DNA of 64,000 nt from Dictyostelium discoideum (Eukaryota). The DNA lies in the NCBI GenBank assembly GCA_000004695.1, contig CM000154.2, positions 4,384,001-4,448,000 of the forward strand. The letters are read 5' to 3'. The stretch's first letter is position 1. Each line of letters opens with the position of its first letter. Position numbers and translations under genes: made by a program. The notes under the pieces are model-generated. The model saw nothing but the letters and a program-made list of their open reading frames with translations, had not been told where the DNA came from and made no database searches. This document shows, in pieces, positions 3,000 through 61,600 of the stretch.

Positions 3000-3154
3000 C
3001 TGATTTTTTTCTTGTGATTTGTTTTTTTTTTTTTTTTTTTTTTTTGTGAGAAAAAAAAAAAAAATCAAAATCCAAATTTTTTTTTTTTTTTTATAATCAA
3101 TTCAAAAAATAACAAATAAAAAATAATTAATTAAATAAATAATATTAAACAAAT

Positions 3155-3201
<47 letters not shown>

Positions 3202-3214
3202 ATAATTAATAATA

Positions 3215-5650
3215 ATGAAATCATTTTTAGAAATTACAGGAGAAAATGGTGATACACCAACAACAAGTTATTTATTTTCAGATTCTGATAGATATTTTTT
3301 TGATTGTGGTGATGGATTTCAAAGATTCATTAAAGGAAGGTCAAATATAACATTTGGTAAAATTAAATCAATATTCATAACATCATTATCATGGGATTGT
3401 ATTGGTGGGTTAATTGGTCTATTCTTAACTATGGCAGAATTGAATATTAAAGTTCGTTTATATGGTCCAAAAGGTTTACATAAATTATTTACATCATCAA
3501 GAGAATTTCAATATCAATTGAATGTAGAAATTTATGAAGTTGATTCAACAATAATTCAAACTATTAAAGATGATTCATTTACATTTTATACATTACCAAT
3601 TACTAATAAAAACAATAAAGATGATGATAATGATGAAATTAAATCGATTATTGATGAAAGTAAAACTCCAACTTTAGCATATTATGGTAGAAATCCACAA
3701 CCTATACCAACAACTATTGAGAATGATTATGAATATGAAGAAAGTTCAATAGTTTGTTATATTGGTATGACAAAAGATTTTAAAGGTAAATTCTATCCAG
3801 AGAAAGCTGTAGCATTAGGTGTACCAAAAGGTATTTCATTTAAACATTTACAAGATGGCAAATCTGTGACAAATAAAGATGGAGTTACAATTACACCTGA
3901 TCAAGTTATGGATAAATCGATTAAAGGTACAAAATTTGCAATCATTAGATGTCCATCAATTGAATATTTACCAAGTTTAAAATCACATCTTTCAATGTTT
4001 ACAGATATTCATATTGTAAATCATATAGTTCCAAATGAAGTTTTATCAAATTTAAATTATATTAAATTTATGGAAGATATTAATCAACAATCAACAGCAG
4101 CAGCAATTAATACAAAACATATTATTGTAAATAATGAAAATTGTGAAAGGGTTTCAGGTTGTCAATCATCTGATAATCAAATTTTAAAACTTCAAAAATT
4201 TATACCATCATTATTTCCAATGAAACAACAATCTAGTGAACATGATAGTTTAGTTAAATCAATTGAATTTTTAAATGATTCAAAAATATTAAAAGATCAA
4301 ATTAATGTTTTCCCATGTAAAGAAACTACAAATTTAATATTAGGTCCACCACAAAATGCAGGTGATATTGAATTTTTACCATTAAATAATAATAATAATG
4401 GCGAAGGTGGTGTTGATTCAAATGAAAATGAAGGTTCTTCTGATAATAAATCAATGGAAGAATTTATAAATACAGAACAAGGTCAATTATTTAAAAAACA
4501 ATTAGATCAACAAGTTGAACAATTAGAATCAAATCCAAATAAATGTTGTCATCCAAAAATATTATTCACAGGTACAGGTTCAGCAATACCAAGTAAATAT
4601 AGAAATGTTACAGGTAATTTCATAACATTGGCAGATGATCAAAATATTCTATTAGATGCAGGTGAAGGTACATTTGGTCAATTGTATCGTTTCTTTGGTC
4701 CAATTGAAGTGAAAAAGCAATTAATTAATTTGAAAATGATTTGGTTATCACATTTACATGCTGATCATCATTTAGGTATACCAAATATTTGTGAAAAAAG
4801 ACAACAATATGCTCAAGAATTAGGTTTAAAAGATAATGAATTAGAGCCATTAATTATAATTGGACCAGAGGCATTGATTCAATGGGTTAATGAATTATCA
4901 GTTATTGTAAATTTAAAATTCATTGGTATTGCTATCAATGGTAATCATTCAAATCAATTGGTACAAACTTGTAAGAAATTAAATATTAAATCATTTTCAA
5001 TGGTACCTGTAATTCATTGTAATTATGCTTTTGGTTTAGTTATTGAATGGAATGATGGATTCAAATTAACTTATTCAGGTGATACTCGTCCTTGTAAATT
5101 CCTATCTGAAATGGGTAAAGATTCATGTGTACAAATTCATGAAGCAACTTTTGAAGATGAAAAACAAATGGATGCTGTCTCAAAAAGACATTCAACTGTT
5201 GGTGAAGCTTTAGAAGTTGGTAGATTAATGAATTGTAAATTCTCTTTATTAACTCATTTTAGTCAACGTTATCCAAATTTAAAAATGGGTACATATAAAG
5301 ATACAAATTATGGTTTGGCAATTGATTTACTTCAAATTTCACCTTATCAATATCCATTAGTTTATAAAATGATTGAACCATTTTCTTTATTATTTGAAAA
5401 TGAAGCTCAAAAGAAATTAGATAAAAAATCAACTCAACCAACAACAACAAGTAAATCAAAATCTACAAAAACAGAAGATGAAAATAATACAATTGAAAAA
5501 GATGCTAAAAGATTAGAGAAATATCAAAATAAATATAAAGATGAAGTAATATTACCAGCTTATGTATATAATATTGATTCAAATTCTTTAACTTTAATAG
5601 AAAATACATTTGATGATTTATCAAGTCAACCTCAATTTGAAGATGATTAA
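3215..5650 (+). CDS. tRNase Z, long form (ELAC2-type tRNA 3'-processing endoribonuclease), 811 aa, apparently a single exon.
   Basis: ATG at 3215. C-terminal half has the metallo-beta-lactamase signature LFTGTGSAIPSKYRNVTGNFITL..LLDAGEGTFGQL and the HxHxDH motif LSHLHADHHLG. The N-terminal half is a degenerate pseudo-MBL domain (FDCGDGFQRF), as in long-form RNase Z. The length matches eukaryotic ELAC2. Confidence 0.85.
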   Translation: MKSFLEITGENGDTPTTSYLFSDSDRYFFDCGDGFQRFIKGRSNITFGKIKSIFITSLSWDCIGGLIGLFLTMAELNIKVRLYGPKGLHKLFTSSREFQYQLNVEIYEVDSTIIQTIKDDSFTFYTLPITNKNNKDDDNDEIKSIIDESKTPTLAYYGRNPQPIPTTIENDYEYEESSIVCYIGMTKDFKGKFYPEKAVALGVPKGISFKHLQDGKSVTNKDGVTITPDQVMDKSIKGTKFAIIRCPSIEYLPSLKSHLSMFTDIHIVNHIVPNEVLSNLNYIKFMEDINQQSTAAAINTKHIIVNNENCERVSGCQSSDNQILKLQKFIPSLFPMKQQSSEHDSLVKSIEFLNDSKILKDQINVFPCKETTNLILGPPQNAGDIEFLPLNNNNNGEGGVDSNENEGSSDNKSMEEFINTEQGQLFKKQLDQQVEQLESNPNKCCHPKILFTGTGSAIPSKYRNVTGNFITLADDQNILLDAGEGTFGQLYRFFGPIEVKKQLINLKMIWLSHLHADHHLGIPNICEKRQQYAQELGLKDNELEPLIIIGPEALIQWVNELSVIVNLKFIGIAINGNHSNQLVQTCKKLNIKSFSMVPVIHCNYAFGLVIEWNDGFKLTYSGDTRPCKFLSEMGKDSCVQIHEATFEDEKQMDAVSKRHSTVGEALEVGRLMNCKFSLLTHFSQRYPNLKMGTYKDTNYGLAIDLLQISPYQYPLVYKMIEPFSLLFENEAQKKLDKKSTQPTTTSKSKSTKTEDENNTIEKDAKRLEKYQNKYKDEVILPAYVYNIDSNSLTLIENTFDDLSSQPQFEDD

Positions 5651-5815
5651 AAAAAAAAAAATAATAATAAAAGAAATTTATTTTATTTTATTTTATTTAT
5701 TTATTCATTTATTAAAATTTGATATTACAATATTATTTATTCAAAAGAAAAAGTTATTTTTTTAGATTTTTAGTTTTTTTTTTTTTTTTAACCCTTACCT
5801 CCTTTTTATATTTTT

Positions 5816-7535
5816 TTAGAATTTTACAACTTTTACATCATCTAATAATTTGCAAACATCAAGAGATTGATTAAAATCATTTGATAAAATGATCTTTTTT
5901 ACAGACTTTGGAATTGAACCATTTAATAAAGGTTGTTTTAAATAACCTAAATGTAATTCTTCAACAGAATCTGGAATTATTGATGGTAATAAACATTGAT
6001 CAAATCCATTTTGTAATGAAATACATTTTACAGAATTTGGAATTGAACCTTCCAATAAATCTTTTTTAATAGCATGAATATCTAACCATTGGATACCATC
6101 TGGTACAATACCTGGTAATAAAACTTGATTAAAGTTACTACCGAATGTAATATTCTTAATTGTATTTGGTATTGAACCAAACATTAACTCTTTTTTAATA
6201 TCATGAATTGATAATACTACAACTTCATTTGAAATTACACCAGGTAGTAATTGATCGAATCCATCATTAATTGTTAAAAATTTTACTGATTTTGGAATTG
6301 ATCCTTCAATTAATGGTTTATCTAATTGAAAACAATGGATTGTTTTAATGGTTTCAGGTAATGTTCCTGGTGAAATAAATTGATTAAATCCATTCAATAA
6401 AATAATTGAATTGACATTTGGTCCAAATTTAAATTTTGATAAATTACCACAATCTTTACCAAATGCAATATTTGAAATGTTTTCATTTTCAATTGGGAAT
6501 GGGTAACTTTCTGAGTAGACATAAAATTTTAATCCATTATCTATTTTTTTTAATCAAAATAATTAAAAATTAATATCATTATTTTAATTTTATAATAATT
6601 GTTTTTAATTTATACATACAAGTTACATATCTGTAATTATCTTTATCAAATTGAATATTATTTTTATCATTTACATTTTCATTATTATTATTATCTTCTT
6701 GATTAATTTTATTTGAAACAATTTCATTTTTATTTTTTAAAGAAAAAAATGATTTAAATGATTCTTTTACATTATTAAGTTCATTATTATTAATGGTAAT
6801 AATATTATTTTTATAATTATCAGAAATTGTATTATTATTTTTTTCTTTTAATATAAGTAATGATTCTTGATATTTTTTAATAATATTTTTAATTTCTTTA
6901 TTAATTTCATTTTCATTTTCTTTTTCATTATCATTTTCTTTTTCTTTTTCATTTTCATTTGATAATTTTTTAATTTCATTTAAATTATTAATTGAAATTG
7001 AATTTTTAATACTTGATAATATTTGATCATAATTATTAATTGATGTTGTTATTGAAGAATTTAAATTTGAATTTTCTTCAAGTGTTGATTTTAATTGATT
7101 TTTTAAATCATTTTCAATGATGTTGATTAAATTATGAATTTTTTTAAATTCATTTGTTATTAATTCAATATTATTATCAAATTCATTTTTAATTTGATTA
7201 TATTTATTATTTGATAGATTTAATAAAATTTTATCATTTTTTATTGTTTCTGAAATTGTTGGATGAATTTTATTTTTGAAAATTTCAATTAATGATAAAA
7301 CATTGGTTTCATCCAATAGGTTTGCTTTATGACCTCTATGATGTTTATCACTTGTTAAACAATGAATGCAACATGGTATTAATTCACAATCTGAGCATAA
7401 AAATGTAATTTCATATTTTGGGTGTAATTGACATTTATTAATATTATTATTATTATTATAAATATTAATACTATTATCTTTATTATTAATTATATTATTT
7501 AAAACATTTTCATCAACAACATTATTTGAAATCAT
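5816..7535 (-). CDS. B-box zinc finger / coiled-coil / FNIP-repeat protein. Exon 1 is 7535..6620 and exon 2 is 6540..5816, with an intron at 6541..6619.
   Basis: ATG at 7535. A B-box-like Cys/His cluster follows: CQLHPKYEITFLCSDCELIPCCIHCLTSDKHHRGH. A long Asn/Glu/Lys-rich coiled-coil region comes next. A GTATGT donor at 6619-6614 (exon ends phase 1) joins an aaaaaaaatAG acceptor at 6542-6541. The junction codon t+at = Y gives ...DKDNYRYVT-Y-NGLKFYVYSESYPFPIEN.... Exon 2 carries repeated FNIP units (GFNQ.L..G.IP.S.. blocks) through to the stop at 5816. The ORF-track M at 6397 is a TTG, not a real start. Confidence 0.7.
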
Positions 7536-7769
7536 TTTATTGATAAATATACAATTATAATTTTATAACTTTAATAATAAAAATAAAAAATTATTTTTTG
7601 TGTTGAATAAAAAAAAAAAAAAATTTATTAATTATATATTATTAACGTAATTATTTCATAAAAAAAAAAAAAAAAAAAAAACAAATCAAAAAATTAAAAA
7701 ATATATTTAATAATGAAAAAAAAAGTGGTATAACCACATCAACACCCTCACACACAATTTCTGCGGGGC

Positions 7770-7789
7770 AAATTCATAATTATGAATTT
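7770..7789. promoter_or_regulatory. Perfect 20-bp palindrome in the promoter/3'-flank region between two minus-strand genes.
   Basis: The sequence aaattcataattatgaattt equals its own reverse complement. It is immediately preceded by the G/C-containing ctgcggggc. It lies about 235 bp upstream of the FNIP/B-box gene ATG at 7535. Confidence 0.2.
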
Positions 7790-8044
7790 ACCATTGTGTT
7801 AATATTATTATTTTTTACTAGCATTTAATTTTAAAATTTTTTTTTTTTTTTTAATAATAAAAATTTATTTGTTGGTGGGTAACAAAAAAAAAAAGTGTTT
7901 GGTATTCCAGTTTAAAATAATTAAATTATAATTTTTTTATTATTATTATTTTTTTTTTATTAAAAAAAATACTTGCATAATGATATGCTAAATATTTCCA
8001 TAATTATATTTATTTATATTGTTTTCTTATATTTTTTATTTTTT

Positions 8045-9418
8045 TTATTTTAATTTTTTAAAATTTTTTCTATAGATTTTATTATTTGGATTATATTCTG
8101 AACATTTTGGATCATTTTTAGGTGCAGGTTCACATAGGCAATAATAATCTAAATCATGATAAATATAAATACAAGGATCTTTTATAAAACAAACATTACC
8201 ACCTTCAAATATTTTAATATTTGAATTTTCATTAAAAATAGTAATATTCTTACAACCTGAATTTCTATTTACAAATCCTACTAAATTAAAATGATCAATA
8301 TATGTAACATTAATTAAATTATTTCTACCAATTAAAAATTTTAATGAATTTGGATCATTTCCAAAATAACCAACTGCTCTGAAAAATCCTATAAAAAAAA
8401 AAAAAAAATTTTATTATTTTATTAATTTAAAAATTAAAATAAATTATAATTATTATTTTTTTAAAAAAAAAATCACATACCTCCATTTGAATCTGGTTGA
8501 GTTTTAATTGAATCAATTGTAATTTGTTTTTTTTGATCACAATTTGGACCAATGTAGCCATATTTACAATGACATTCATAAAAACCACCACTAATATAAC
8601 CAAATTTACAATTTGATAAAGGTTTATATTCTGAAAAGTTCCAAATTATTTCATTTTGAATAATTTTAAATTGAAGAGGTTCATTATTATAATTTAATAA
8701 TTTACCAATATTACATCTAATTGTATAATTATTTCTTGATGTTATATTACATGGTTTATTATCAATTGTGATTCTATAAATTTGATTCTTGTAAAAGTAT
8801 CCTATCAACCTAACTTCTCCACCATCAACTTTTGCAGGTTTCAATTGAAACACTTCAGGTTTAAATTTTTCACAATTTTTACCAAAATAACCTGCTTCCC
8901 AACATATTCTTCTACCTGTTAATTCTGATAATGTAGTTTCACTACCACCACTACCACTACCACTACCACCATTTTTATATTCTATTGAATAATTTACTCT
9001 AGTATCTTCAAAAATAATTATATCTTTTAAATTATATGGATCTTTAAAATTGTAATCATCCAAAATTTTAACGATTGGATTTACTATATCACTTTTTTGA
9101 AAATAATCTGAACATCTTGGAAAACCTTTTAATGTTGGTTCACAAAGACAATAAAAATCTTTACTTTGATTATAATACATGTTATTACATCTGTTTGCAT
9201 CAAAACATAATAGATCATTACCACTAAATAATAATTCATTAGTTATTGAATCATAAATTGATATTTTCTTACATCCAATATCACCTTTAACAAAACCAAA
9301 AATTTCTCTAGAATCAATAAATGAAATATTTGCTCTATTATTATTATTATCACCAACTATAAAATTCATTGGGTTTGGATATTTACCAAAAAATCCAATT
9401 GCTCTAAAAAATCCTTTC

Positions 9419-9455
<37 letters not shown>

Positions 9456-10048
9456 AATATTTTAAAAATAAATAATTAATTAAATTATTTACCTCCTTTT
9501 TCTTCTGGTTGAGTTAAAATTTGATCAATTGAAATTGGTCTATCTTTATCACAATTTGTACCAACATATCCAAAATCACAAACACATTTTATAAAACCAC
9601 TTGTTATATAACCATTTTCACATTCTGGAAATGGTGTATATTCTGGATATGTCCAAATTATACCATTTTGATAAATTTTAAAATCTACAGGTTCATAATC
9701 TTTTAATTCACCGATATTACATTTAATAGAATAATTATCATATGATGTAATATTACATGGTATATTATCAATTGTAATTTTATATTCATTTTTATCATAA
9801 AAATAACCAACTAAACTAACTTCACCACCTTCAAGATTTGCAGGAACTAATTGAAAAACTTCTGGTTTTGTTTTTTCACAATTTGAACCATATCTTCCTT
9901 CTTGAGCACACGCTCTTAAATTATTTAATTCACTCGATTTTAAATCTGAAATAACATTTGTATCAATTGACCAACTACCTTGTGTTAAAATTATATTATA
10001 ATAATTATTAATTAATAATATTAAAAAATATAATTTTATAATATACAT
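8045..10048 (-). CDS. Secreted Cys-rich protein built from repeated EGF-like plus IPT/TIG-like modules. Exons are 10048..9493, 9413..8481 and 8388..8045.
   Basis: True ATG at 10048 with a signal peptide MYIIKLYFLILLINNYYNIILTQG. Both introns are phase 1: donor GGAG|GTAAAT at 9492 with acceptor gaaAG at 9415-9414, and donor GGAG|GTATGT at 8480 with acceptor tatAG at 8390-8389. The same module types recur. Module B reads GYFGKNCEK.KPEVFQL.PA..GGEV.L.GYFY....Y.ITIDN.PCNITS..NY.I.CNIG...Y....FKI.QN.IIW..EY.P...C..GYI.GGF..C.C..GY.G.NCD (EGF-like Cys spacing plus an IPT/TIG-like beta-sandwich motif) and appears in exons 1 and 2. Module A reads GFFRA.G.FG..PN...F..G.NN....ID......GFV....GCK.I.I........F.G......D...........YYCLCEP and appears in exons 2 and 3. 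Stop at 8047-8045. Confidence 0.7.
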
Positions 10049-10536
10049 TTTTTTTTTTTATTTTATTAATAATAATAAAAATAATAATAATAAAATTTTA
10101 TTATTATTATTTTTATTATTATTAATAAAATAAAAAAAATAATAAAATAAAAAAACGAATAAATAAAAAACTATAATAAAAAAAATAAATGAATAAATAA
10201 AAATAAAATTGAAAATAAATAATTACAATTAGTAATAGTAAAATTAATTATTTAAAATTTAAAATATGTGGGTTATTCTTTTTCAACAAAAAAATAAATT
10301 GTGGTTAATGTGTTTTAATTTTATTAATTTTTTTTTTTTTTTTTTTTTTAATGTCAATTCTTGAAATAGTAGTAATAGTATTAAAAGATTGAAATTATTA
10401 TTAAAAAATAAAAAAGTTAATTCTTTTAATTATTATCATTATTATTATTTTAAAAATTATTAACCTTTGGTATAAAAGTCATTTTATTATTATTATTATT
10501 ATTTATTTATTTTATTTTATTTTATTTTATTTTATT

Positions 10537-13916
<3,380 letters not shown>

Positions 13917-21678: not shown

Positions 21679-22043
21679 ATGTATGGAAATAGAATATTAT
21701 TTTTCCTTATTTTATTTTCTCTTTTATGTCTTGTTAATGGTCAATTTCAATTGACAGATTTATCAAGTAATACAGATAAAATAAAATATTTAGAATCAGA
21801 TGGCTCAACATGTAATTTTAAAATTCCAATTTTAGCCAATGGTTCAGGAACTTTGAATTTTTTAAGTGAAAATACTATTCCTGCACAATGGTTTCCATAT
21901 TCATATTCATCAGGTTCTAATACTCTATTTCTAATAGAGTTTAGTTCAATAAAAAAGGGAGAAAAAGAGTTTACTATTTCAGCAGATAGTGCTCCTTCAA
22001 TTAAAATAACTTTATCATGTTTGTGTAAGCATTACTATTTTAT

Positions 22044-22091
<48 letters not shown>

Positions 22092-25000
22092 ATTAATTGA
22101 TATTTACATATTAATTTTGGTGGTGAAATTACATTTAGATCAGTATCAAGTAATCAAAGACCTATTTATTCATTATCAACATCATTCAATAATATTCAAA
22201 TTTATGTATCACCAAGACCAATCTCTGGTAATGCAAATAATATTACCTACATAGTTTATTGCCCTCGTTTTGAAAAAAGTGGAAAACAAGTATATAATTT
22301 AAACTCATTTTTACCATTTGGTAATGCTACTATATCAACAATAAGTATAGTATAGATATCCAATTATATATATTTTTAAGTATAAATACTAACAAAAAAA
22401 AAAAAAAAAAATTAATAGGTAAATTTTATAATACTCTAAGTATTTTTAATAATAATTCAGCAAATATAATTTCAAATAATCAAATAGGTGAAGCATCATT
22501 TGATCTTTCATTTGAAAATTTAAAAGGTTACGATTTTAAAACATATCAATACCAATTTAAATCAGGATCATCTATATATTCAGCATTTCCATTTGGATTT
22601 AAGAGTGGAAATAATTCAAAATTTAATTATTTAGCATCGTTTTTAACATCTAATCAGTCAAGTAATCCCACTTCGGAATTAAAAGTTGATGAAATTACAT
22701 TTCAAGTAACTCCTAATCAATTGGTTCTCACAACAGATGATACTCTCCGTATTGAAGATTTAAGATTTTTAGAAGCCACCAATTTTAAATTTGTAATTAG
22801 AATTATAGCTGGTAGTAAATATTTAGTAAAATACTTTATTATACCATTAAAAAATGGTTTAAATATAAAGATTGACAATAGTAATGTTATTTCTCAAAAT
22901 TTATTACTTGGAATTTGGGAATATATTTTCGATGCTTTTTCATATGGAACTGATTTTGAAGGTAATATTATTATCTATAATTTCAATGATCAACAAAAAT
23001 CATATTCATTAGGATATCCATATGATGCAAAAAAACCTAACAATATTTTATCATTACCAAAAACTGATCTATCAAGTAAGTATACTTTATTAATTTTATA
23101 AAATTATTATTAAAAAAAATTTAATTCTAATTAAAAAATTTATTATTATAATTAAAAGATTGTAATTATTTACAAGATATTAAAAATATTTCATTTTTAA
23201 ATAATAATATTGATTTAACTAATCAAAATGTTGATAATATGATATATTTTTCATTTGGAAATAATAATAATAATTATATTACAAAATCAATTGGATTTTC
23301 ATTAACTGACCCAAAATCATTAAGAGATCAAGGTTTTAATGGTGATATTTCAAAGTATTACAATACAAAATTAACATTTGCAAAATTTGATTCAATTAAT
23401 AATAGATTTAGTGCACCATTTAAAATGCCAGCCAATATAGTACCAGGTCAGTTGGATTATACTATAATATTTGATAGAGATAATATTATTCCAAGTGTAG
23501 CATTACCAATGGAGTATCAATTAAATGTTACAAGTTCAAATGTTGATATTCAAGGACCAATGATAACAAATATAATTTATAATTATAATTCAATTTCTTT
23601 TGGTTGGACAATTACAATTGAAGACTCAATAAATGGTTTTGATAGTGGTTATATTCTAATTAGAGGTGTAATTGATAATTCATTATACAATATTTCATTC
23701 TCAAATAGGGATGGTAAAAATGGTAATAATAAATTTAAAAACAATTATGATATTCTAATAGAATTAGATAAAACTCATAAGTGTACATCACAAAATTATT
23801 CAATCAATTATGTTTATTTAGTTGACACATTTGGTAATGAAGCAACATTTTATAAACATGCAACTGATATACAATTAAATAAAATGGTTTATAATTCGGA
23901 TTCAACTGGTAATCCATTAATAAATTTTATAAATCAACAAAATTTATTTAGTATTTTATCACCAGATTATTGCAACTCTCCTCAAGTTGATTCAACAATT
24001 ACTTTACTTAGTTTTAATACAACCACTACTGAAATAGATGCTGGTTCAATTAATAGATCTGTAACATTTGATTTTGAAGTACAAGATTCTGTTTGGGGTT
24101 TAAAAAAAGATCAATATCCAATGGTTTATTTAATTTCTCAAGATTTTAAATCGGTTCAATGTGTCTCTAAAATTGTATCTTTAAATGATTTTAAAGGTGT
24201 TTATCAATGTACTTTTGATCAATTACCACTAGGTTTTGGCTTTCCAAATGGTTTGAGTATATCAGTTTATGGTTTCATTAATAATGGTGGTCAATTTTAT
24301 GGTTTCTCATCATCAATGTTAAAGAGTTTAGGTTTTAAAAATTTTATAAGTGTTTTACACTATAATCCAAATTTAATATTCATTACTGGTACAAGTGAGG
24401 TAACTGAATTAGATAGTGAATTCTTAATTTATGGAACTGCACTCACAAATGTTATTACAGCTAGAATAACTCTTTCAAATGGTACTCTTATAGAATGCCC
24501 TTGTAAAAGTACTTTTAATAGTATTCTCAAAGTTTTATTTTTCCCAATTGGTATTAAAGATCCTTTTACAATTACACTAAATGGAGTTTTAAATGATTAT
24601 TCAAATGTTTACCCGGTTACACCAATTCAATATAATTTCAAATATGAACCAATAATAACTGAAACTCCAATAGTTACATACCCACCTCAAAAATGTAAAG
24701 GCTCACCAGAATGTGGTGGTACATCCAATGGTTATTGTTCCAATTCAGGTTGTATTTGTTATTCACCATGGTTTGGAATTGATTGTACATCTCAAATTAT
24801 AACAGTAGCTCCACCATTGATTGATACTGATAAACCAATAACATCAATTGATGTACCAAAAGATTCAAATGGTAATAATATAAAATCAATTATATCAATT
24901 GTTGCATTAAGAGAAATTAATTCAGTAACAAATGAACAAATTAAAATTCACTATTTTGAAAAATGGATTTATAAAAATATCTCCTCAACGATTTCACAAT

Positions 25001-25722
25001 ATACAAGTAATATTACAAATGGTGATGGTGATGATGGTAAGCCAATAACCACTACAACCATCACAGCAACTTTAGAATGGTTTTCAGAGAGTAGAAATAT
25101 TTCTTTCGCAAATCAACAATTAATTATGAATCCATCAAGTATGAAATATACCATAGAACTTTCATCATATGCTTTTTCAAATTCATTATCAAATTTACAA
25201 GTGGTAATGTCTGCTCAAATTCAATCAAACCAAAAAAATATTTGTTCAGATAAAGATTTTGGAAATACTACAATGGAAAATTCAAACTATATAAAATTAC
25301 AAGTCGCATCTAATAGTTTCTATGGAAGATATATTAAACGTGGTATTGTTGATGGTAAATTCATTACGGTTGAAAATGAAATTTTAGATTCAAAATTTAA
25401 TGCAATTCAAAGTGAAAATACTGCTCAAACTTTTATTGGTATTTTAATTGGAAGATATGTAAATTATGCTATTATAGATCCAGACTTTTCAATATTAATT
25501 GAATCAAACTCTGCCAATTCCAATTCTCCAAATTCAATTTGTTCAGCATCAAATTCAACAAAAGTTTCAACTGGACAACTTATTGGTATAATCATTGGTT
25601 CTTTTATTGCTTTCTTATCATTGTTAATAATTGTTTTATTCCTTATGTATAAATCTCCTCATTGTTTATTTTTTAAAATTTTTATTTATAAAATTACTAA
25701 AAAGTCAAAAATAAATAAATAA
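21679..25722 (+). CDS. Type I transmembrane glycoprotein with IPT/TIG-like and EGF-like extracellular domains (Tgr-like architecture). Exons are 21679..22024, 22144..22344, 22419..23075 and 23159..25722.
   Basis: ATG at 21679 with a signal peptide MYGNRILFFLILFSLLCLVNG. Exon 1 to 2 uses donor T|GTAAGC at 22025 and acceptor atcAG at 22143; the alternative, donor GT at 22023 with acceptor tttAG at 22138, adds 2 aa. Exon 2 to 3 uses donor A|GTATAG at 22345 and acceptor attaatAG at 22418, with a tactaac-like branch point. Exon 3 to 4 uses donor A|GTAAGT at 23076 and acceptor aaaAG at 23158. All three junctions are phase 1 and frame-consistent. The last exon has an IPT/TIG-like segment (PNLIFITGTSEV..LIYGTAL.NVITARITLSNGTLIECPC.....L.V.F.PIG......ITLNG) and an EGF-like module (CKGSPECGGTSNGYCSNSGCICYSPWFGIDCTS). 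There are many N-x-S/T sites, a TM helix LIGIIIGSFIAFLSLLIIVLFLMY, and a short basic tail. Confidence 0.65.
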
Positions 25723-37496: not shown

Positions 37497-39041
37497 TTAT
37501 TTATTTCTAATTTTTCTTTTAATTGAAACTCTTTCTAAATTATAATTTGAACATTCAAAAGCTTGAAAAGGTGGAACGAAATGAATATAAGTTCCAATTG
37601 TTATACAAGCAATAATCGGACCAACCATATATGGCCAAATTTTATTAAATATTCCAGTTACAATTGCCGGACATAAACATCTAGCCATATTAAATCCAAA
37701 TATATAATTTGGTGAAATACCAGATGATGCAATAATTGAGAAACCTAATGTAATTGATATGAAAAATGCACCAACTGCTCCACCAATTATTGGAGTTTGT
37801 CTTCTATCCAGGGCAGTTCCAAAAGCAATATACAAATTTAACATTGAAAACATGAATTCCATACCAAGTGCTCCACCACTACTTATATCACCACCATATG
37901 TACACATACCTAAATTTGTCCTTTTCATAACTTCGAATGGAATTATACCTCTAATAATCGCTGATCCAATTATACCACCTGTAATTTGAAAAATAATATA
38001 AAATAAACATCTTATAACTTTTTTTTTATTACACCCCACTCTATTAATATAAAATTATAATTATAATAAATTATAATAAAATTAAATTAAATTAAATTAA
38101 ATACATACAGGATGTATAACCTGAAAAGAAAGTTGCAATTGTAATTGACGGATTTAAATGACCACCACTAACAGGGGCACAAGTTAAAATTAATAAGTAT
38201 AATAATGGTACATGTAAAACAGCAGAAGTTGCAGGCACTCTATAATTTGGTACAGAATTTACCAATGTTTCACCATTAAAATCATTAAGATTTGATATAT
38301 ATGAATAATCAAAATAATTTACAGACGAAATGAAAATACCAATTGACATAAATAAAAATAAAGCACTACCAATCATTTCTGTAACTGATGCTTTGTATAA
38401 TTTACTATCGAATAATTCATTGTATCCTGATATTCTTATAATTTCATTTATTAATTTATCTTTAAATTTTAATTTATTTATTTCACTTTTTTCATCAATT
38501 GATGATTGTTTTGATTTTAAATCTTTTTCACTATTCTCATAATCATCGTCATCATAATTATAATATTCATCATCTTTAAATGACTTTGGAGATATTAAAG
38601 TACTACTTGTATTATTATTATTATTATTGACACTATTACCACTACTACCACTTCTATCACTTCTACTATTATTACTAATATTTGATTCAATATCATAGTT
38701 TATGGGTATTTCTAAATCTATTTCATCATTTTCAATACCATCATTATGATGTTGATTTTGTTGATGTTGATGATGTTCAAGATGTTGATGATGTTGATGG
38801 TGTGGGTGGTGTGGATGATGTTGATGGTGTTGATGGTGTTGACTTTGATAAATATGGTGTATTGTATGTCTTTTTCCATAGTCATTATATTCATCATTAT
38901 TATTAGAACCATACCTTATTAAGCTAGCATACTTATAAAATGGAGCTGCTAATTCATATCTAATTTTTTTTCTTCTCCTTATACTTATATTACTACTATT
39001 ACTATTTCTACTACTACTATTACATGTACTTGGACTTTTTA

Positions 39042-39110
<69 letters not shown>

Positions 39111-39147
39111 TACTACTAATACTATTACTATTACTATAACTACTCAT
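37497..39147 (-). CDS. Major intrinsic protein (aquaporin family) with a long Asn/His/Gln-rich N-terminal extension. Exons are 39147..38109 and 37978..37497.
   Basis: ATG at 39147. About 250 aa of N/H/Q/S/D-rich low complexity follow, including HHQHHQHHPHHPHHQHHQH. The first half of the MIP fold ends ...SGGHLNPSITIATFFSGYTS, then the donor T|GTATGT at 38108 (phase 1) and the acceptor ttacAG at 37980-37979 give C-GIIGSAIIRG.... The second half, FGFNMARCLCPAIVTG, sits in the position of the second NPA box. Hydrophobic helices are typical of MIPs. Confidence 0.75.
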
Positions 39148-42906: not shown

Positions 42907-45500
42907 TTACATTTTATCCCAAGACCAAACTTTAAGATTACTAGCTAATGAACCAGTAAATAATTGATTTTGATTTCTCCAAAGACAAAGAATTGAAGAT
43001 CTTGTATTGAGAGAAGCTAAATTTTCGTATTTATCATGACTGAAAACTTGTAACCAATCACCGCTACCTGCAAAGATACCTTGATTAGTGACGTGAAGAG
43101 TTTCAACACGATCCTTACATTTGATGGTATTGACGCAACGTGTAGTTTTAAGATCCCAAATTCTAATAGTTTCATCATGAGAACCACTGTAGAGCATATT
43201 GTTATGAGCGTAAAGTGTTTTGACCCAACCTTCATGACCTTGGAAATTGGTGAGAATAGTACCAGTAGCTAAATTCCAAACGTAAATTTGTTGATCATTT
43301 GAGCCAGAGAATAAGAGATTACCCATTGCGCAAACCGATTTAATGGCACGAGTATGACCTGATAAAGTTTTAACGCATTCATATGATCTCATATCCCAAA
43401 CTTTAACGGTTTTATCGTTGCAACCAGTGTACAATAGATTGTCTTGAATGAAAATGGTATTGACTTCGTTGGATTCTTTGATCTCTTTGATGGTTTGTTG
43501 AGTGTTGATATCCCATTCCTTAACCAAAGAGTCTGCACCTGCTGTCAAAATATTTTGATCGAAACCTGGACGTTTAATGACTGCTCTAATCGATTTACCA
43601 TGTGCTTTAATGTTGGTAACATGTTTCAATTCAACAGCATCCCAAACACCGATTTGGCCATCATTTGAACCACTATATAATCTTAAACTATCACCAGTGA
43701 TACATTCTGATTGTAAACCTCTAACTGTATCGATATTCTTTATTGATGTTAAATCCCATTTTTCAAATTCTGAACGATCTGGTGTTTGTTCCATTGATGA
43801 TGTTGATGTCGATTCTGGTGTTGGAACATTCGATGATGATGTTGACGATGCTGATGCTGCTGCTGATGATGGTTGAATTGGTTGTTGTGGTGGTGGTGAA
43901 TTTCTAGAAACTTGAATTGAAATTGGTGCTGCATTTGTAGTTGATGATGATGAAGATGATGAAGATGATGATGATGATGAAGATACGCTACTACTATTAC
44001 TGTTAACACTACTACTATTGCTACTATTATTTATATTATCATTATTATTATTATTATTATTACTATTATCATTGTTACTGCTGATGCTACTATTATTATT
44101 ATTTATATTATCTTGTTCTAATTTTACATTACTATTTTCTTTTGGTGGTGATACAGGTGATTTATTTACTACATTTGATTGTGAAGGTGTTTTTACAATT
44201 TGAGGTACAGGTTTTGAAGTTGGTGAAGAAGGTGATTGCTGTTTATGTAAATTATTACCAGATGGTTGTTTAACCAATGGTGGAGAAGGTTTACTTTTTT
44301 GTTGTTGTTGAGCTCTAATTCTTTCCAATTGTTCTTGAAGCATTTTCTCTTCATCATCTAATGAGATTGGTTGTTGAGCACCACCACCATTTCTAAAGTA
44401 ATTCATATCGTAGTTATTCTTTGGACCACTACCATTACCATTCAACCCGATTGCATCATGGAAATCCATTAATTGTACGACGGGTAATGTACCTCTTAGG
44501 AGGGCTTTCTTTGATTGATTGATTGGTTTCAACTTTAAAAAGTCACAAACTGGATTACACTTGTGTGTTTGAAGGAATTTGTGGAAACCCGTCTCGCCCA
44601 AATTACCCTCGCCAAAGCCCTCGCCTGATTTCGTATGAATTTGAGGATCAGTGTAGAAATCGTTGACACCTTGGATATCAACGATCAACAATTCATGATT
44701 GGAGAGTTCGTATGAGAAATGAGAGAATGATTGTGGTGTATTTCTAGCATCACTACTAACGTAACCACTGTTGTTGTTATGTTTCTTGTAATCTCCCTCA
44801 ATGAATGGTTCACCACCACAAACTGGATAAGGTGGTGGATGATCAATCAATTCGTAAACGTATGATGGTAAGAATGTAATTGGTTTTGGTGGTTTCGCTT
44901 CATTGAATTTCTCTGCCCATTTAGCACAAAATGTTTGCATCAATACATCTGTAAAGTATGAATCTCTTGTCGTCTTTTTATTGGTTGAAAATTTACCAAC
45001 TAATCCTTGATCTGGTTGACTCCAATCCTTTAATTTATGTGCTGTTCTACAACTACCCTTTGCAAATGGAGTCTTCTCAATTGAAACACATACAATACTA
45101 TGTGTCCATTTTGGTTTTAAATCATCACCAATTGTTAATTCCCATCTTTTTTTTTTAATAATAAAAAATAATTATTAGTAAATTTAATAATAAAAATTGA
45201 AAAAAAATTGAAAAAAAAAAAAATTAAAAAAAATTAAAACCATACTTTATTGCTCTTTCACATTTTGTACCTGCAATAACATCGGCAACTGGGAATTTTT
45301 GATTTAATAATGCCAAAGCTGTCATTTGAAAAATAAATAAATAATAATAATAAAATTTTAGTTTTATTAGTAATTTGTTCAACTTTTTTTAAAAAAAAAA
45401 AAAAATAGGTTTCTATGTAGTATAAAAAATATAAAATAAAATAATATTTATTTAAAATTGATAATTTACCTGCTGCTGCTCCTGTTTTTTTTTCTTCCAT
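42907..45500 (-). CDS. Alpha-kinase/WD40 protein of the myosin heavy chain kinase (MHCK B/C/D) type. Exons are 45500..45470, 45318..45246 and 45145..42907.
   Basis: ATG at 45500 gives MEEKKTGAAAG|GTAAAT (phase 1). The acceptor gacAG at 45320-45319 leads to ALALLNQKFPVADVIAGTKCERAI, then the donor AA|GTATGG at 45245 (phase 2) and the acceptor aaaAG at 45147-45146. Exon 3 begins KWELTIGDDLKPKWTHSIVCVSIEKTPFAKGSCRTAHKLKDW... and continues to ...DIQGVNDFYTDPQIHTKSGEGFGEGNLGETGFHKFLQTHKCNPVCDFLKL, the alpha-kinase catalytic domain including the GNLG and CN..C motifs. A Ser/Asn/Gln/Pro-rich linker follows, then seven WD40 repeats (GSNDGQIGVWD, GCNDKTVKVWD, GSNDQQIYVWN, GSHDETIRIWD ...). Stop at 42907. 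Confidence 0.75.
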
Positions 45501-54039: not shown

Positions 54040-55610
54040 TTAGTTATTGTTATTATTAATATTTTTTAAAATGATTGATTCATTAATTTCCCAATCTTGA
54101 TGATTATAAGAACCAATTGAAGTTAATAATTCTTTTGTGCTATTTGACATTTTGAATAAACTATTGATTTTAAAATTTGATACCATTAAATTTTGATTAT
54201 CGTGAATGTGGAATGTTGAATATCTTTTGGAAGACATTCCATTTGATTTTGAAACTAATTCAATCCATTCTTGGTAATCAATCTCTTTGCAATTGTAATT
54301 ATTTTCTAAAAATTTATAAATTGATTTCATTTCAATTGAATTACCATTTAAACTGTAAATTGAAATTGGTTTTGATTTATTTTGATTCCAACTGTTTTCA
54401 TTGAATATTAAATCGATTGTGGTTTTAGCTATAGTTGTAACTGGAGTTGTGAAAATTGATTTATAAATATTTGGATAATAACCAATCTCTTTTGAAGTTT
54501 TTAATAAAAGTGATACGAAATCATTTGAATGACCTATACCTGTTATTGGATTTGAGAATATATCTGTATTTATTATAATAATAATAATAATAATAATAAT
54601 AAAATGTTTATTTTATTAGAATCTATAAATTAAATATTAAAGGTTTATCATATATGATCTATATTTATTAATTACATACCAGGTGGTCTAATAATGATTG
54701 ATGGTATACCTCTTGATTCTGCTGCGTTTGTTAATAATTTCTCTGAAATAACTTTACATTGAATATATCCAATTGGTGTAGTATCAAAATTTGGTAATAT
54801 ATTTGTTTCTTCAAATTCTTCTCCATCTTTAAAAGGATGATTAATAAATACTGCAATTGATGAAAAATGAACTATTAACTTTTGTGAGCTATTATTTGAA
54901 ACTGATAATTTTACAATTTGATTGACGCTGTTAACATTTACAGTTTTACTTTCTTCGTAGTTTGATTTTAAATTTAAATCTGCTGCTGAATTTATAATAA
55001 TATCACATTCATTTGATAGTTTTAAATAATCTTGTTCAGTTAAACCAAATTTATCTTTTGAGATATCACCAATCATTGGAATGATTTTAATTAATTGATC
55101 TTCACTTATTTGTTTATAATATTCACTATTTTCAATATTACTTAATTTATCATTTGATATATTACCTGTATGATTGATTATTTTTGTTAATCTTTGATTT
55201 GGTGATTCTTTGTTCATATTTATTAATTGATGTTTCTTTAAATTATTAATAATTACATCGATTGGATTTGTTAATTTTGAATTATTTCTTATTAAACAAT
55301 AAATTTTTGATATATTGTTCATTTTAATTAATTCTGTTAATAAATATGCACCCAAGAATCCTGTTGAACCTGTTAAGAATATTGATTTACTATTATTACT
55401 TTTATTTAATATATTTTTAATTGAATATGGTCTTGAAATGATTGATTCATTTAATTTCATTTCATTTTTAATAAATTCATCAAGTGATTGTTGTTCTTTT
55501 TTAACCAAATTATTATTATTATTGTTATTTTTATTATTATTAATATTATTATTAATATTATTATTATTTTTATTATTATTATTATTATTATTCTTATTAT
55601 TATTATTAAT

Positions 55611-55641
<31 letters not shown>

Positions 55642-58600
55642 TTATTATGAGCAGATAAAATAATTTCAATTGATTGATTGATTTTATTATTTTGTAATTG
55701 TTGAATTGTGATAATATTATGACCTAATTGATTATCGATAAAATTCTTTAATTGTACAATCACTAAACTATCCATACCATATTGTGTGAGTTGAAGGTCT
55801 TCATTGATTTTAGATTCATCAATTGATAATAATTCACAAATCTTATTTAAAATTGTCGAACGAATAATTTCATTATTATTATCACCATCATTACTACCAG
55901 TGAAAGATTTGATTTGATTTGATTTTTTAACAATATTAATTTCAAAATCAAATTTTGAATGGTATTGATTTGTTAAAGTTGATGGTAAAATTTCAAAATT
56001 GAAATCTGATAAACAATAGTTTGGATATTGATGTTGATTTTGAATGAATAAATCTAATGAACTAATAACGAGTTGAGGTGAGAATAGTTTTAAAATTGAA
56101 CTCTTGAACATTGTTTCAATTGCATTATTACGTGATACGAAACCAGTTGATGATATCGCACCTAAATTAATGGCTAAAGATGGTAATCCAATTGAATGTC
56201 TATACTTTGATAATGAATCGATAACACTACATGCACTAACATAACAACATTGTTGATCTGATCCCAATATTGAGACTACTGATGATGCCATTATAAATTG
56301 TTTGATATTCCATGAACGATTAATCGATTGATTGTGAAGATTGATTGCTCCAATTGTTTTAGCACCATGTGTATTATTTAAACGATTCATATCGACTTGT
56401 TGGACATCACCAATATCATTCATAAATGCAAAATGAATGATTGAATCAATATTTGTAATATTTTCATTTAATTCTAATTGATTTAATACTTGATTAACTT
56501 TATTTGAATCTTCAATATCGATTTGATTGAAATGGAATTTAATATTATTATCTTTTTTAAATTTGCTTTGATTGATTAATAATTCTAATTCCCATTTTAA
56601 TTTTGATTTTGAAAGTATTATTATATTTTCAATTGAATCATTTGAATATTTAACCAAATATTTTAATATTTCTAAAACAATACCAGTTTGACCAGTGAGT
56701 AAAATATTCTTACCAATATTTAATTTTGAAATATCATACGAATGTTTCAATATGATTTGATTGTTATTACTTTGATAATTATTATAAACTCTATTAAATT
56801 CATCTTGATTGTGATTAACAATGATTTTACCAATATGTTTTCTTTGATTTATATATTCAATTGCATCTTTAAATTGATTATTTGAATATTCAATGATTGG
56901 TACACTTAACTCTAATTTATTTGAATTAATCATTTTGATAATTTTCTTTAAATAGCTTTTGATTAATTTACTTGTGAAATCTTCTACATACACATTACCA
57001 TAGTTCATATTAAATTTGTAATGATTGTTTGTCATATAATCATTTGATGTGAGATGAATGATACTTAAATCAACGATACGTCCTGATAAATTTAAACATT
57101 GGAAATTTGAATCCATATACTCTGATGATAATGTATTTAATATTAAATCTACACCTTGTTGATGTTGTTCAACTACACCTAATTCTATTAATTTATTCTT
57201 AATTTCATAAACATAATCTTTATTACGAGATGAATAGATAGCAGTAATTAATGATCCATATTTATTTATTAAATATTCTTCTTTATCTTTTGAACCAACT
57301 GTTAAAAATATATAACCTTGATGTTGTTTACTTTTTAATAAATCTAAAGATGATATACCGACACCACCTGCTGCTGAATGAATTAAAATTGATTCATTTG
57401 ATTTTAAACTACCAATACCATAGAGACTATGTAATGATGTAATATAAACAGATGGTATTAAGGCTGAAACTGAATGACTATAATTTAATGGTTTATAATA
57501 AATGTAATCATAATCTACAATAATATGAGAACTACTTGTTTTTGAGCCGACACCACAAACTTGATCACCAACTTTAAATTTCTTTACATTACTACCTAAT
57601 CTTGTGATTATACCGCTAAAGTCTTTACCAATTTTTGGATTATTAAAACCAATACAATTTTCAATTTCTTTACCATATTTAATATCTAAATTCGTACCAA
57701 TCATACCGATATACATTAAATAATCTTTATAATTCATACCAGTTGCTTTAATTTCTATCTCTACTTCATTTGAATTTAATTTATCTTTTTTACTATATAA
57801 TTGATATTCTAAATTTGAATTTAATTGAATACATAAATTATCTTTATTGTTTTCAAATGATTTAGATTGAAGTTTTGATTTAATATTATTTGATCTTCTA
57901 CAATATCTTTCATAGTATACTCTATTATTGTTAATCGTAAATTCTTTTTGAATATTATTATTTGGATTGATTAAATAATTGATTAATGATAATTGTTGAT
58001 TATTTTCAATTGAAACATTATCATAATTTAAAGTTAATAAATCTAATTGTGGGAATTCAACGAAATAACGAGCAGCACCAACAATTGATGATGATAAATA
58101 ATTATCAGTGCTTGAATTTAATGATAATAATAAATGTTTGAAATTATTTGATAATTCTAATTTTAATATTAATTGATTAATTTGAATGTATTCAAATGTG
58201 ATCTCTTTGAAATTTGAAGTATTCATTATTGATTCAATTGATTTTAAAAATATTATTAATGTTTTATTACAATCATCTTTAGTTTGATTATTTGTGATCC
58301 ATGATTGAAATTCATTAAAATTATTAATATTAATGATTTTATGTTTTAATTCTTGATTTAATGTTATTGAATCAAGAATACTACTGCAACTATTTCTATT
58401 ATTATCACTATTATTATTATTATTATTATTATTGTTATTACTAAATAAAATAATATTATTGAAAGAATTTAATTGATCTAATGATATTGATTGTTCTGAA
58501 ATGATTTCATTAATTGTTGGTTTTCTAGTTTGAATTAAAAATAGTAAATTATCATTACCAGACATTATTGTATCTCTATAATTACATTGATTTAAAAGGT

Positions 58601-61600
58601 TGATCCATTTCTCTTGTTTCATACAACATCTATCAGGTCTTAATTCGATATCACTATCAGAGGATGGCCACCATTGTGAAAAACAACCGAAAACAGAATC
58701 ATAAATAAATGATTTGTGTGGTGGTTCTATTAATAAAAGTTGACCATTTGGTGTTAATATATTATGAATTTCATTTAATGTTGGTTTGAGTTTCTTAACG
58801 ACATGCATAACATTTGACATTACAACGAAATCATAATAGGATGCTTTAAGATCTTGATCTAATAATGGTTTTTCTAAATCTAATACACGATAGATAATAT
58901 TTAAATTGTTGCGATTTGTAAATGATGAGAACTTTTCTTTAATTTCAGCGAAAAATGATGCAGATATATCACTCCATGTAAATTCTATATTAATGATTGA
59001 TGTTGTACTATTATTATTTAATAATTTACAAATCTTTTCTAAAATTAATAAACTAAGACTACCAGTACCGCCACCTGCTTCTAATATACGAAATACAATT
59101 GGTTCATTTAAAATTGGTTTTAGAGTTTCGACTATAATTTCACTTAATAAACTATTCAATGGTTGAACTACTCTTGAATTCTTATAAAAGTCATCAAGAT
59201 AACCACTTTCAAATAATGATTGTGGTGTATCTGTAATGGAATCATCATCTTTTAATGGGAATAGCTGTTTTGCCATTATTTTAGTTGTTCTAATAAATAA
59301 CTCTTCATTTTTTGATTTAATATTACTGTGATCATTGTCAAGGTTAACAATATTACTGTATTTCTTTAAATTTTCAAAAATGAATTTGAAAAGATTTTCA
59401 TTTGCAGAACTATTATAATATAATTGTTTAAATTGATTATATTCTAATGTTGTTAATGATTCTAAATTGATACTTGGACATCTATTATTAATATGTTTAT
59501 AAAATAATGACAATAATGATTCATTTGAAAGAAATTGATTATCTTCTTCTTTGACACTAAATTCATCTACTCTATATAAATGTTTGAATTGTTCAGGTTT
59601 ATTAATTACTGAATCTTTTGATTGAAGATATGGTGTATAGATATTATTTGATGGTGGTTCACATATTATTGTGCTATCAGGATTGGAGTCAAGTGAAACT
59701 AAAGCGCAAACCACATTTGAGATATCAACTAATAATGTACCATTTGGAAGTATGATTTTAACTGATATTGAATATGTTTGAGAATTGGTTCTTGGTTTAA
59801 TATCTGAAAAAACATATAATTCTTTAATATCATCATCATTATCATCATTATTGTTGTTATTTTTATTTAATGATGGAATGTTTGAAGAGTAATATTTGAA
59901 ACCTTCAATTTTATCAAGTACTACTGGTTGTGTGACTGCAACTAATGACCCATGTAAACAAGTATCTAAAATTGCTGTATTTAAAAATGTATTCATATTG
60001 CTATTGTTTATTAAATGATTATATTCTTTTTGATTGTAAATTTCATTTAATGATACTATTGCTAATGAACAATTATTACCGATATGACATTGTTTTACAC
60101 CTTGAAATAAACCTTTGTATGTTAAATTTGTTTTAATTCTAATAGTTTCATAAAAATCTTGTTTTGATATGCTTGTAAAATTACATTTATCTTTTAATGA
60201 TTGAATATTAATTAATTTGTTACTGATGATACTGTTGTGTTTGGTTAAACTAAAATTACCAAGAGATGTTAATATCCATTGATTTGTTTTTTGATCTTTG
60301 TAATAACTTTTGATATTGAATTCATTCTTTGATAGTGGTGCAATTGTAGTTTGTAAACATTGTCTATTACCTTCTGTTAATACTAATGGTGATTTAAATT
60401 CTAATGAGCTAATTGTAATATCTTGATTTGGATAAATTGATAATAAATTGTGAACATATCCCATTCCTGGATAATAGAATTTATCACTAACTTGATGACC
60501 TTTTAACCATTGGAATGGTGATTTCTTGATATCGATAAATGTTTGATATGATGGGTTAGGTGAATCTGTATTATTGCCAAGACCATGAATGGATGGACCT
60601 TCACTTTTAATCTTTTCAAGTAATGAGTTTAGTTTAAAGTATTCTTTATCATCCCATTGGTAAAGTGGTAAATTATTTAATTGGTTTGAATAGTTATTAT
60701 TGTTGTTGTTGATTAATTGTGATTTGAAATTAATATCAAAATTATTTTTGACATATAATAAAGAGATTGTCTTTAAGAATTCATTATAATCATTCTTCTT
60801 TTTATTTAATGGTGAATAGATTGTAATGTTTTTACCATTATTAAAGTAACTTGATTGAGTTGATTTCATTTGATTTAAGTAATATTGTAATGTTGGATGT
60901 GGTGAAACTTCAATGAATGTAATTTCATTACCCATATCATTTGATTCGATATGTTTGTAAAGATTTGTAATTGTTTGTGTGAAATATACTGGTTGAATAA
61001 TATTATCAAATACATAATTTGCATTGAATGGCGAGCTTTGATGATTGAATAAATTGGTTGTAACTGTTGAAAATACTGCTATCGATGGTTGTTTTGATGA
61101 AATATTTAATGAACATACTTCATCTTTAATCATTTGTTGACTTGATGTATGAAATGATGATAATGATCCTAACATTGAACAAAAGATATCATTTGATTTG
61201 AATTCTTTGGTAATTTCATTTAATAAGTCTTCTTTACCTGCGATAACGATTGATGTCGGTGAATTGTAACATGCAATTTCTAATGATTTATATTTAGTTG
61301 TAGATTGATATTTATTAATGAATTCATCTGAACTAATATTAACTGATAACATTCTACCTGTACCTGTGGTTCTATTTTGAGCTACTGATCTATGGTAAGT
61401 CAAGTAACATAATGTTTGAAAATCAATCATACCTGAACAATATGGCGATGATACTTCACCAAGAGAATGACCAATGATAATATCTGCTGAAACACCCCAA
61501 TGTTTATATAATTCATAGAGTGATACTTGAATCATTACATTTGCAGGTTGTGCTAAAATTGGTTGATGAATTGATATTAAATCTTTATCATCAATTGATC

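Follow-up and report, generated by a model that had tools for sequence, protein, structure and literature searches.

The described dictyostelid proteins to which an extracellular protein with IPT/TIG (E-set) repeats invites comparison are the Tgr (Tiger) proteins, for example TgrB1 and TgrC1. Tgr proteins are anchored by a single-pass transmembrane segment, and their ectodomains are large (PMC3188802; PMC11536038). Few genes are more polymorphic than tgrB1 and tgrC1, which rank 15th and 34th (PMC11536038), but this exceptional polymorphism is a property of these two and not of the whole Tgr family. In the ectodomain stalks of plexins and of Met and RON, IPT domains alternate with cysteine-rich PSI knots. 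The present study concerns DDB_G0290627, a three-exon gene at 10048..8045 on the minus strand of a 64-kb stretch of Dictyostelium discoideum AX4 chromosomal DNA (contig CM000154.2; hereafter the window). Our data indicate that DDB_G0290627 encodes a probably secreted, disulfide-rich rod of IPT and EGF-like domains that was doubled by one tandem duplication carrying an older intron with it, and the probability of this reading as a whole is put at roughly 85%. With the Tgr proteins the protein shares IPT/TIG repeats, which is a generic feature; it has four IPT domains in place of a large ectodomain, and it has no transmembrane segment. Its knots are EGF-like and not of the PSI kind, the sequence identity to plexins, Met and RON is only 7–18%, the resemblance is at the level of the fold only, and the Sema domain, the transmembrane segment and the cytoplasmic part of those receptors are absent.

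A single consistent gene model was obtained when the minus strand of 7600..10500 was read and alternative junctions were tested (Table 1). In both introns an in-frame stop codon lies two codons past the donor. Exon 1 ends after the first base of the Gly186 codon, and both introns split the second Gly codon of a GG pair (G|GA), once in TQPEEKG|GFFRAIG (codon 186) and once in TQPDSNG|GFFRAVG (codon 497). The spliced open reading frame (ORF) of 610 amino acids (aa) shows 100% identity along its whole length with the annotated DDB_G0290627 (UniProt Q54FR6), which appears in the records as a hypothetical protein and as an 'EGF-like domain-containing protein'. It is a real, ordinary, previously annotated protein-coding gene. 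The three exons, the positions and phases of both introns and the shared G|G codon, all proposed in the first-pass annotation, are borne out by the splice sites, by the frame and by the annotated gene.

Comparison of the N-terminal with the C-terminal half of the protein by BLASTP aligned aa 39–289 with aa 348–595, with 129 of 253 positions identical (51%, E 1e-89). The intragenic duplication that had been proposed is thus upheld, although the copies are on the whole less alike than the 55–60% estimated at first. The first-pass annotation had recognized two kinds of module, A and B, in the order SP-B | A-B | A (SP, signal peptide; bars, introns). Between the copies part B is 61% and part A 45% identical, and the nucleotides are 69% identical. 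The order is better written SP-(B|A)-(B|A): a unit of about 250 aa occurs twice, each time with an intron at the same aligned codon. The border between the units falls in a linker (aa 290–347) that lies inside exon 2 and holds no intron.

The location of the introns within the unit depends on what module A is. The IPT/TIG part of the domain assignment stood up well. The whole protein matches Pfam TIG (PF01833) with 31.6 bits against a gathering cut-off of 20.9, over two stretches, IPT1 and IPT3, which scored 24.3 and 18.5 bits, respectively, when scanned alone. A Pfam scan of module A gave no match, nor did one of the linker, and a sequence search of the PDB returned nothing relevant. Alignment by hhalign of module B with module A was uninformative when the profiles held only the two internal copies (probability 1.2%) and became significant only with family profiles: the family IPT1 profile aligned with the module-A profile with a probability of 90% and E 1.5e-6 over 74 columns, placing KPEVFQL.VPANLEGGEVSLVGYF on RPISIDQILTQPEEKGGFFRAIGFFG with the GG motifs in register. 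A structure of unit 1 was predicted with AlphaFold2 from a nine-sequence family alignment (mean predicted local distance difference test score, pLDDT, 73.7). The model contains two 7-strand beta-sandwiches, at unit residues 25–99 and 135–218, with a small hairpin knot between them, and in the AlphaFold2 models strand A of the second sandwich (ISIDQIL, aa 173–179) lies upstream of the junction at G186. The corresponding strand A of IPT4 reads ITIDSIK. By profile comparison and model, module A is a second, divergent IPT/TIG domain missed by Pfam, predicted to start at about aa 171, 15 residues before the junction. The architecture is SP - [EGF remnant - IPT1 - EGF - IPT2 - EGF] - linker - [EGF remnant - IPT3 - EGF - IPT4 - EGF]. 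Both introns are consequently predicted to lie inside IPT domains, IPT2 and IPT4, about 15 residues into the domain, where the conserved GG follows strand A and precedes strand B. The claim that the introns stand at module boundaries does not survive this result: they cut IPT2 and IPT4 after strand A, while the A–B junction lies within exon 2 and has no intron.

This bears directly on how the two-unit gene arose. The earlier proposal was exon shuffling or exon duplication, in which symmetric phase-1 exons, each encoding a module, are copied when recombination takes place in the introns, as is described for extracellular proteins of metazoans. Exon 2 (933 nt) is indeed formally a 1-1 exon, and its two junctions are alike in phase and in flanking residues. 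Against these points, the introns are not domain borders, since the IPT2 and IPT4 sandwiches are split after their first strand; the unit runs B-intron-A, and where one unit ends and the next begins no intron is present; no homologue examined has an intron at the A/B border; and a homologue of D. purpureum with a single unit already carries the identical intron. On this evidence exon shuffling is extremely unlikely to have built the gene. A duplication that took an intron along explains the same features. The ancestral gene would have encoded a single unit, whose second IPT domain was interrupted at the conserved GG, after strand A and before strand B, by one phase-1 intron. A single tandem duplication of some 0.9–1 kb, which began just past the signal-peptide region and took in the intron and everything up to the unit's end, would then have given the order SP-B|A-B|A; its two introns would agree in phase and in flanking codons, intron 2 being a copy of intron 1. 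A tandem gene duplication followed by fusion would be an equally compatible route. As the intron would have been present in the unit before it was duplicated, a shared phase, shared junction residues and a symmetric 1-1 exon 2 result as a matter of course. It should be noted here that the introns of an internal repeat may agree in phase and in junction residues without any shuffling of module exons, for which such agreement counts as evidence only where the introns fall on domain borders. The main value of the present analysis lies in this correction, as an apparent case of metazoan-style exon shuffling in an amoebozoan turns out to be a trivial outcome of duplicating an intron-containing segment.

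The age of the intron was approached through the relatives of the gene. When 1.84 billion representative proteins were searched exhaustively with phmmer, six entries matched at E<=1e-3, namely the query itself, four small clusters from dictyostelids and a distantly related IPT protein of a fish (Table 1); the significant sequence relatives have E values from 1e-17 to 1e-6. In word-indexed searches the full protein found only itself, the alignment of the two units found nothing, and the family alignment found nothing new. The gene for DICPUDRAFT_41509 of D. purpureum has one intron, of 57 nt and in phase 1, in VSHFG|GYFYANGFFG, which is the aligned G|G codon. As this protein has a single unit, the intron would predate the duplication, and this is the simplest history that the sequences suggest. 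By neighbour joining, both units from three isolates grouped together in one clade, apart from every single-unit relative, in 200 of 200 bootstraps. The duplication would accordingly fall after the split from the single-unit paralogues and before the divergence of the D. discoideum isolates compared, and the gene would have been under moderate purifying selection since.

The relatives are EGF-IPT-EGF-IPT-EGF proteins of group-4 dictyostelids, which have the domain order, the GG motifs and a signal-like N-terminus in common with DDB_G0290627. They differ from it in that each of their loci encodes one unit or half a unit, two units being found only in DDB_G0290627, and in that their EGF knots have 6 Cys where DDB_G0290627 has 4. 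DICPUDRAFT_77300 has in addition further EGF domains at its N-terminus and a region rich in Ser, and it ends in a hydrophobic tail resembling a glycosylphosphatidylinositol-anchor signal (3001..4485 of its locus, L004), and from such a tail some family members may be surface-anchored. The family is tiny and uncharacterised, its proteins are probably secreted, and all the members found come from D. discoideum, D. purpureum or close relatives. DDB_G0290627 is a lineage-restricted, uncharacterised protein built of known kinds of domain.

The cysteines are distributed differently in DDB_G0290627 and its homologues. IPT2 and IPT4 each have a Cys pair, at aa 233/255 (about 9205..9352) and 542/563 (about 8189..8256), which is absent from the aligned domain of every homologue, and the EGF-like knot that follows has two Cys fewer than in the homologues. 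This difference may reflect a disulfide rewiring that took place before the duplication.

A soluble member of the Tgr family, acting as a kin-recognition ligand or decoy under diversifying selection, had also been suggested. IPT/TIG domains with EGF-like spacers in an extracellular protein of a dictyostelid would agree with this suggestion. The absence of a transmembrane segment, by a Kyte-Doolittle scan in which the N-terminus was the sole hydrophobic segment and the C-terminus was basic (KIYRKNFKKLK), does not. Among the phmmer matches at E<=1e-3 there was no Tgr protein, the presence of Tgr proteins in the library of 1.84 billion representatives being inferred from the recovery of other AX4 proteins. 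The gene 11.6 kb away, at 21679..25722 on the plus strand, had been taken for a Tgr-like neighbour. It is a multi-exon gene whose product has DUF7743, DUF7035, DUF7034, DUF7949 (EGF-like) and ComC supersandwich domains and a C-terminal transmembrane segment; no TIG match and no tblastn similarity to DDB_G0290627 was found in it. It is a gene for a ComC-family membrane protein, and its description as Tgr-like has to be withdrawn. DDB_G0290627 itself reached 23.1 bits with Beta-sand_ComC_2nd, below the cut-off of 27 bits, and it has none of the ComC signature domains (DUF7035, DUF7034, ComC_SSD). The link to the Tgr family is not supported by these comparisons, which suggest that DDB_G0290627 shares with it only the generic IPT fold and nothing more specific.

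Selection was examined in three isolates, namely AX4 (the window), GCA_054859385 and GCA_054859205 ('cf. discoideum'). The orthologous proteins of the latter two, of 614 and 609 aa, are 96% and 95% identical to DDB_G0290627. Both introns lie at the same codons in both; intron 1 measures 79, 101 and 70 nt and intron 2 92, 69 and 68 nt in the window, GCA_054859385 and GCA_054859205, respectively, and the exons stay in frame though the intron lengths vary by non-multiples of three. Between the isolates the synonymous divergence (dS) of the gene is 0.074–0.081 and the ratio of nonsynonymous to synonymous divergence (dN/dS) 0.20–0.41 by the Nei-Gojobori method, as compared to 0.05–0.15 and 0.03–0.35 for five neighbouring ORFs. 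Such rates point to ordinary, moderate purifying selection on DDB_G0290627 between isolates. Between unit 1 and unit 2 dN/dS is 0.81. This ratio is below 1, and it is raised by the A/T-biased codon usage, which lowers dS; it is compatible with a relaxation of constraint once the unit had been duplicated and provides no evidence of positive selection. The claim of diversifying selection finds no backing in either comparison. The polymorphism of the gene is ordinary, and in dS (0.075) and dN/dS (0.2–0.4) it matches its neighbours and is unlike TgrB1 and TgrC1 (PMC11536038). With this, and with the ComC-family identity of the supposed Tgr-like neighbour, a soluble Tgr ligand or decoy is very improbable.

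The same data bear on whether the duplicated gene is functional. DDB_G0290627 could be a decaying duplicate, either a pseudogene or two genes wrongly merged into one. A dN/dS of 0.81 between the internal copies, the loss of Cys from the EGF-like knots relative to the homologues and the lack of any expression record in the literature searched would be in keeping with decay. Three isolates with synonymous differences of about 7–8% nevertheless keep an intact frame of 610 codons and both splice junctions, with a dN/dS of 0.2–0.4 among them. Unit 2 has neither a start codon nor a signal peptide of its own, and an even number of Cys is retained in the two units. A decaying or wrongly merged gene is thus a very unlikely account, and a working gene doubled by a tandem duplication is preferred.

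Several observations weigh against the reading we prefer. No expression or proteomic record came to light, the gene identifiers being absent from the full-text literature searched and from the searched supplements. The EGF part of the domain assignment fared less well than the TIG part: EGF models scored 12–14.5 bits on the protein, all below threshold, and although the CxCxxGYxGxNC signature is present, the Cys number only 4 in each EGF-like knot and 2 in the N-terminal remnants. The aligned knots of the homologues do pass EGF models (EGF_Tenascin 33 against 25 bits, EGF_2 30.5 against 22.1, EGF_Teneurin 25.3 against 24.3), and it is through them that the assignment in DDB_G0290627 is suggested. 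In the AlphaFold2 model the third EGF-like region of the unit has a pLDDT below 50. The genes for DDB_G0272606 and DICPUDRAFT_77300 are intronless; to call the intron ancestral is to assume that it was lost twice and not gained in parallel at an AG|G site. No synteny with the window was found at the loci of the homologues, that of DICPUDRAFT_41509 included. The linker DNA aligned locally with the 5' flank and N-terminus, and with the C-terminal tail and 3' flank, no better than shuffled sequence; as the junction could not be traced, a segmental duplication is not distinguishable from a gene duplication with fusion. The signal peptide was assigned from hydropathy and visual inspection, and a role in the extracellular matrix or in adhesion would derive entirely from domain content.

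As to that role, DDB_G0290627 has a signal-like N-terminal segment (aa 1–22), eight N-x-S/T sequons and 28 Cys, an even number, and a signal-like start is seen in every homologue with a complete N-terminus. The protein is probably a secreted, N-glycosylated, disulfide-rich rod; secretion without membrane anchoring, as first proposed, agrees with a signal-like N-terminus as the only hydrophobic segment and is graded here as probable. In such a rod disulfide knots would separate the IPT sandwiches, much as PSI knots do in the stalks of plexins and Met; outside the cell it may serve as part of the matrix or in adhesion. Two equivalent binding units in one chain could make it a bivalent cross-linker of two partner copies, or could simply serve as a longer spacer. 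Since the introns lie at homologous codons of homologous IPT domains and exon 2 is a 933-nt exon of phase 1-1, skipping of exon 2 would stay in frame. It would leave a single-unit protein of 299 aa with a seamless hybrid IPT domain, strand A coming from IPT2 and the rest from IPT4. That alternative splicing in fact yields monovalent one-unit and bivalent two-unit secreted isoforms is a most improbable conjecture. If it were true, and if the partner were a cell-surface recognition protein, the product could be a soluble modulator of cell–cell adhesion in a lineage-restricted family.

Table 1. Features of DDB_G0290627 in the window and its relatives found by phmmer
Feature	Position	Strand	Description
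Exon 1	10048..9493	-	556 nt; start codon, signal-like N-terminus (aa 1–22), EGF remnant, IPT1, EGF, strand A of IPT2
Intron 1	9492..9414	-	79 nt; GT..AG (GTAAAT...GAAAG); phase 1; 96% A+T
Exon 2	9413..8481	-	933 nt, phase 1-1; remainder of IPT2, EGF, 58-aa linker with Gly/Ser run, EGF remnant, IPT3, EGF, strand A of IPT4
Intron 2	8480..8389	-	92 nt; GT..AG (GTATGT...TATAG); phase 1; 96% A+T
Exon 3	8388..8045	-	344 nt including stop; remainder of IPT4, final EGF-like knot, basic tail; C-terminus not hydrophobic
Repeat unit 1	9103..9934	-	aa 39–289; EGF remnant - IPT1 - EGF - IPT2 - EGF; contains intron 1
Repeat unit 2	8093..8928	-	aa 348–595; architecture as unit 1; contains intron 2
IPT1	9638..9868	-	aa 61–137; matches Pfam TIG
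IPT2	9202..9538	-	aa 171–256; earlier module A plus 15 upstream residues; predicted IPT/TIG-fold beta-sandwich, cut by intron 1 between strands A and B
IPT3	8632..8862	-	aa 370–446; counterpart of IPT1 in unit 2
IPT4	8186..8526	-	aa 482–564; IPT2 homologue in unit 2, cut by intron 2 at the same place
Inter-unit linker	8929..9102	-	aa 290–347; Gly/Ser run
Relative: D. purpureum DICPUDRAFT_41509			263 aa, 80 bits, one unit
Relative: D. discoideum DDB_G0272606/DDB_G0274037			285 aa
Relative: D. purpureum DICPUDRAFT_9634/77300			249 aa (partial) and 494 aa
Relative: XP_002649117, D. discoideum and close relatives			EGF-IPT-EGF protein, 175–176 aa
Relative: coelacanth G8/IPT protein			match through generic IPT domain

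The Gly/Ser run of the linker (about 8941..8973, aa 333–343) varies in length and composition, reading GGSGSGSGGS in AX4, GGGGGGSGGS in P0017 and SGSGSGSGGGSGSG in P0018. The two assemblies labelled D. discoideum and cf. discoideum differ from the window at 3215..13523 by about 10–14% in aligned DNA. Together with their dS of 0.05–0.15 in five neighbouring genes, this seems high for conspecific D. discoideum isolates.

The remainder of the window is an ordinary chromosomal stretch, with genes for tRNase Z, FNIP and B-box proteins, a UBE2O-like E2, a leucine-rich repeat protein, an aquaporin, an alpha-kinase with WD40 repeats and a polyketide synthase. Three of these were located on the minus strand: the aquaporin (MIP) gene at 37497..39147, in two ORFs that are presumably split by an intron; the alpha-kinase with WD40 repeats at 42907..44943; and, at 54672..62063, the polyketide synthase ORF of 2463 aa, with AT, DH, MT, ER, KR, ACP and reductase domains.

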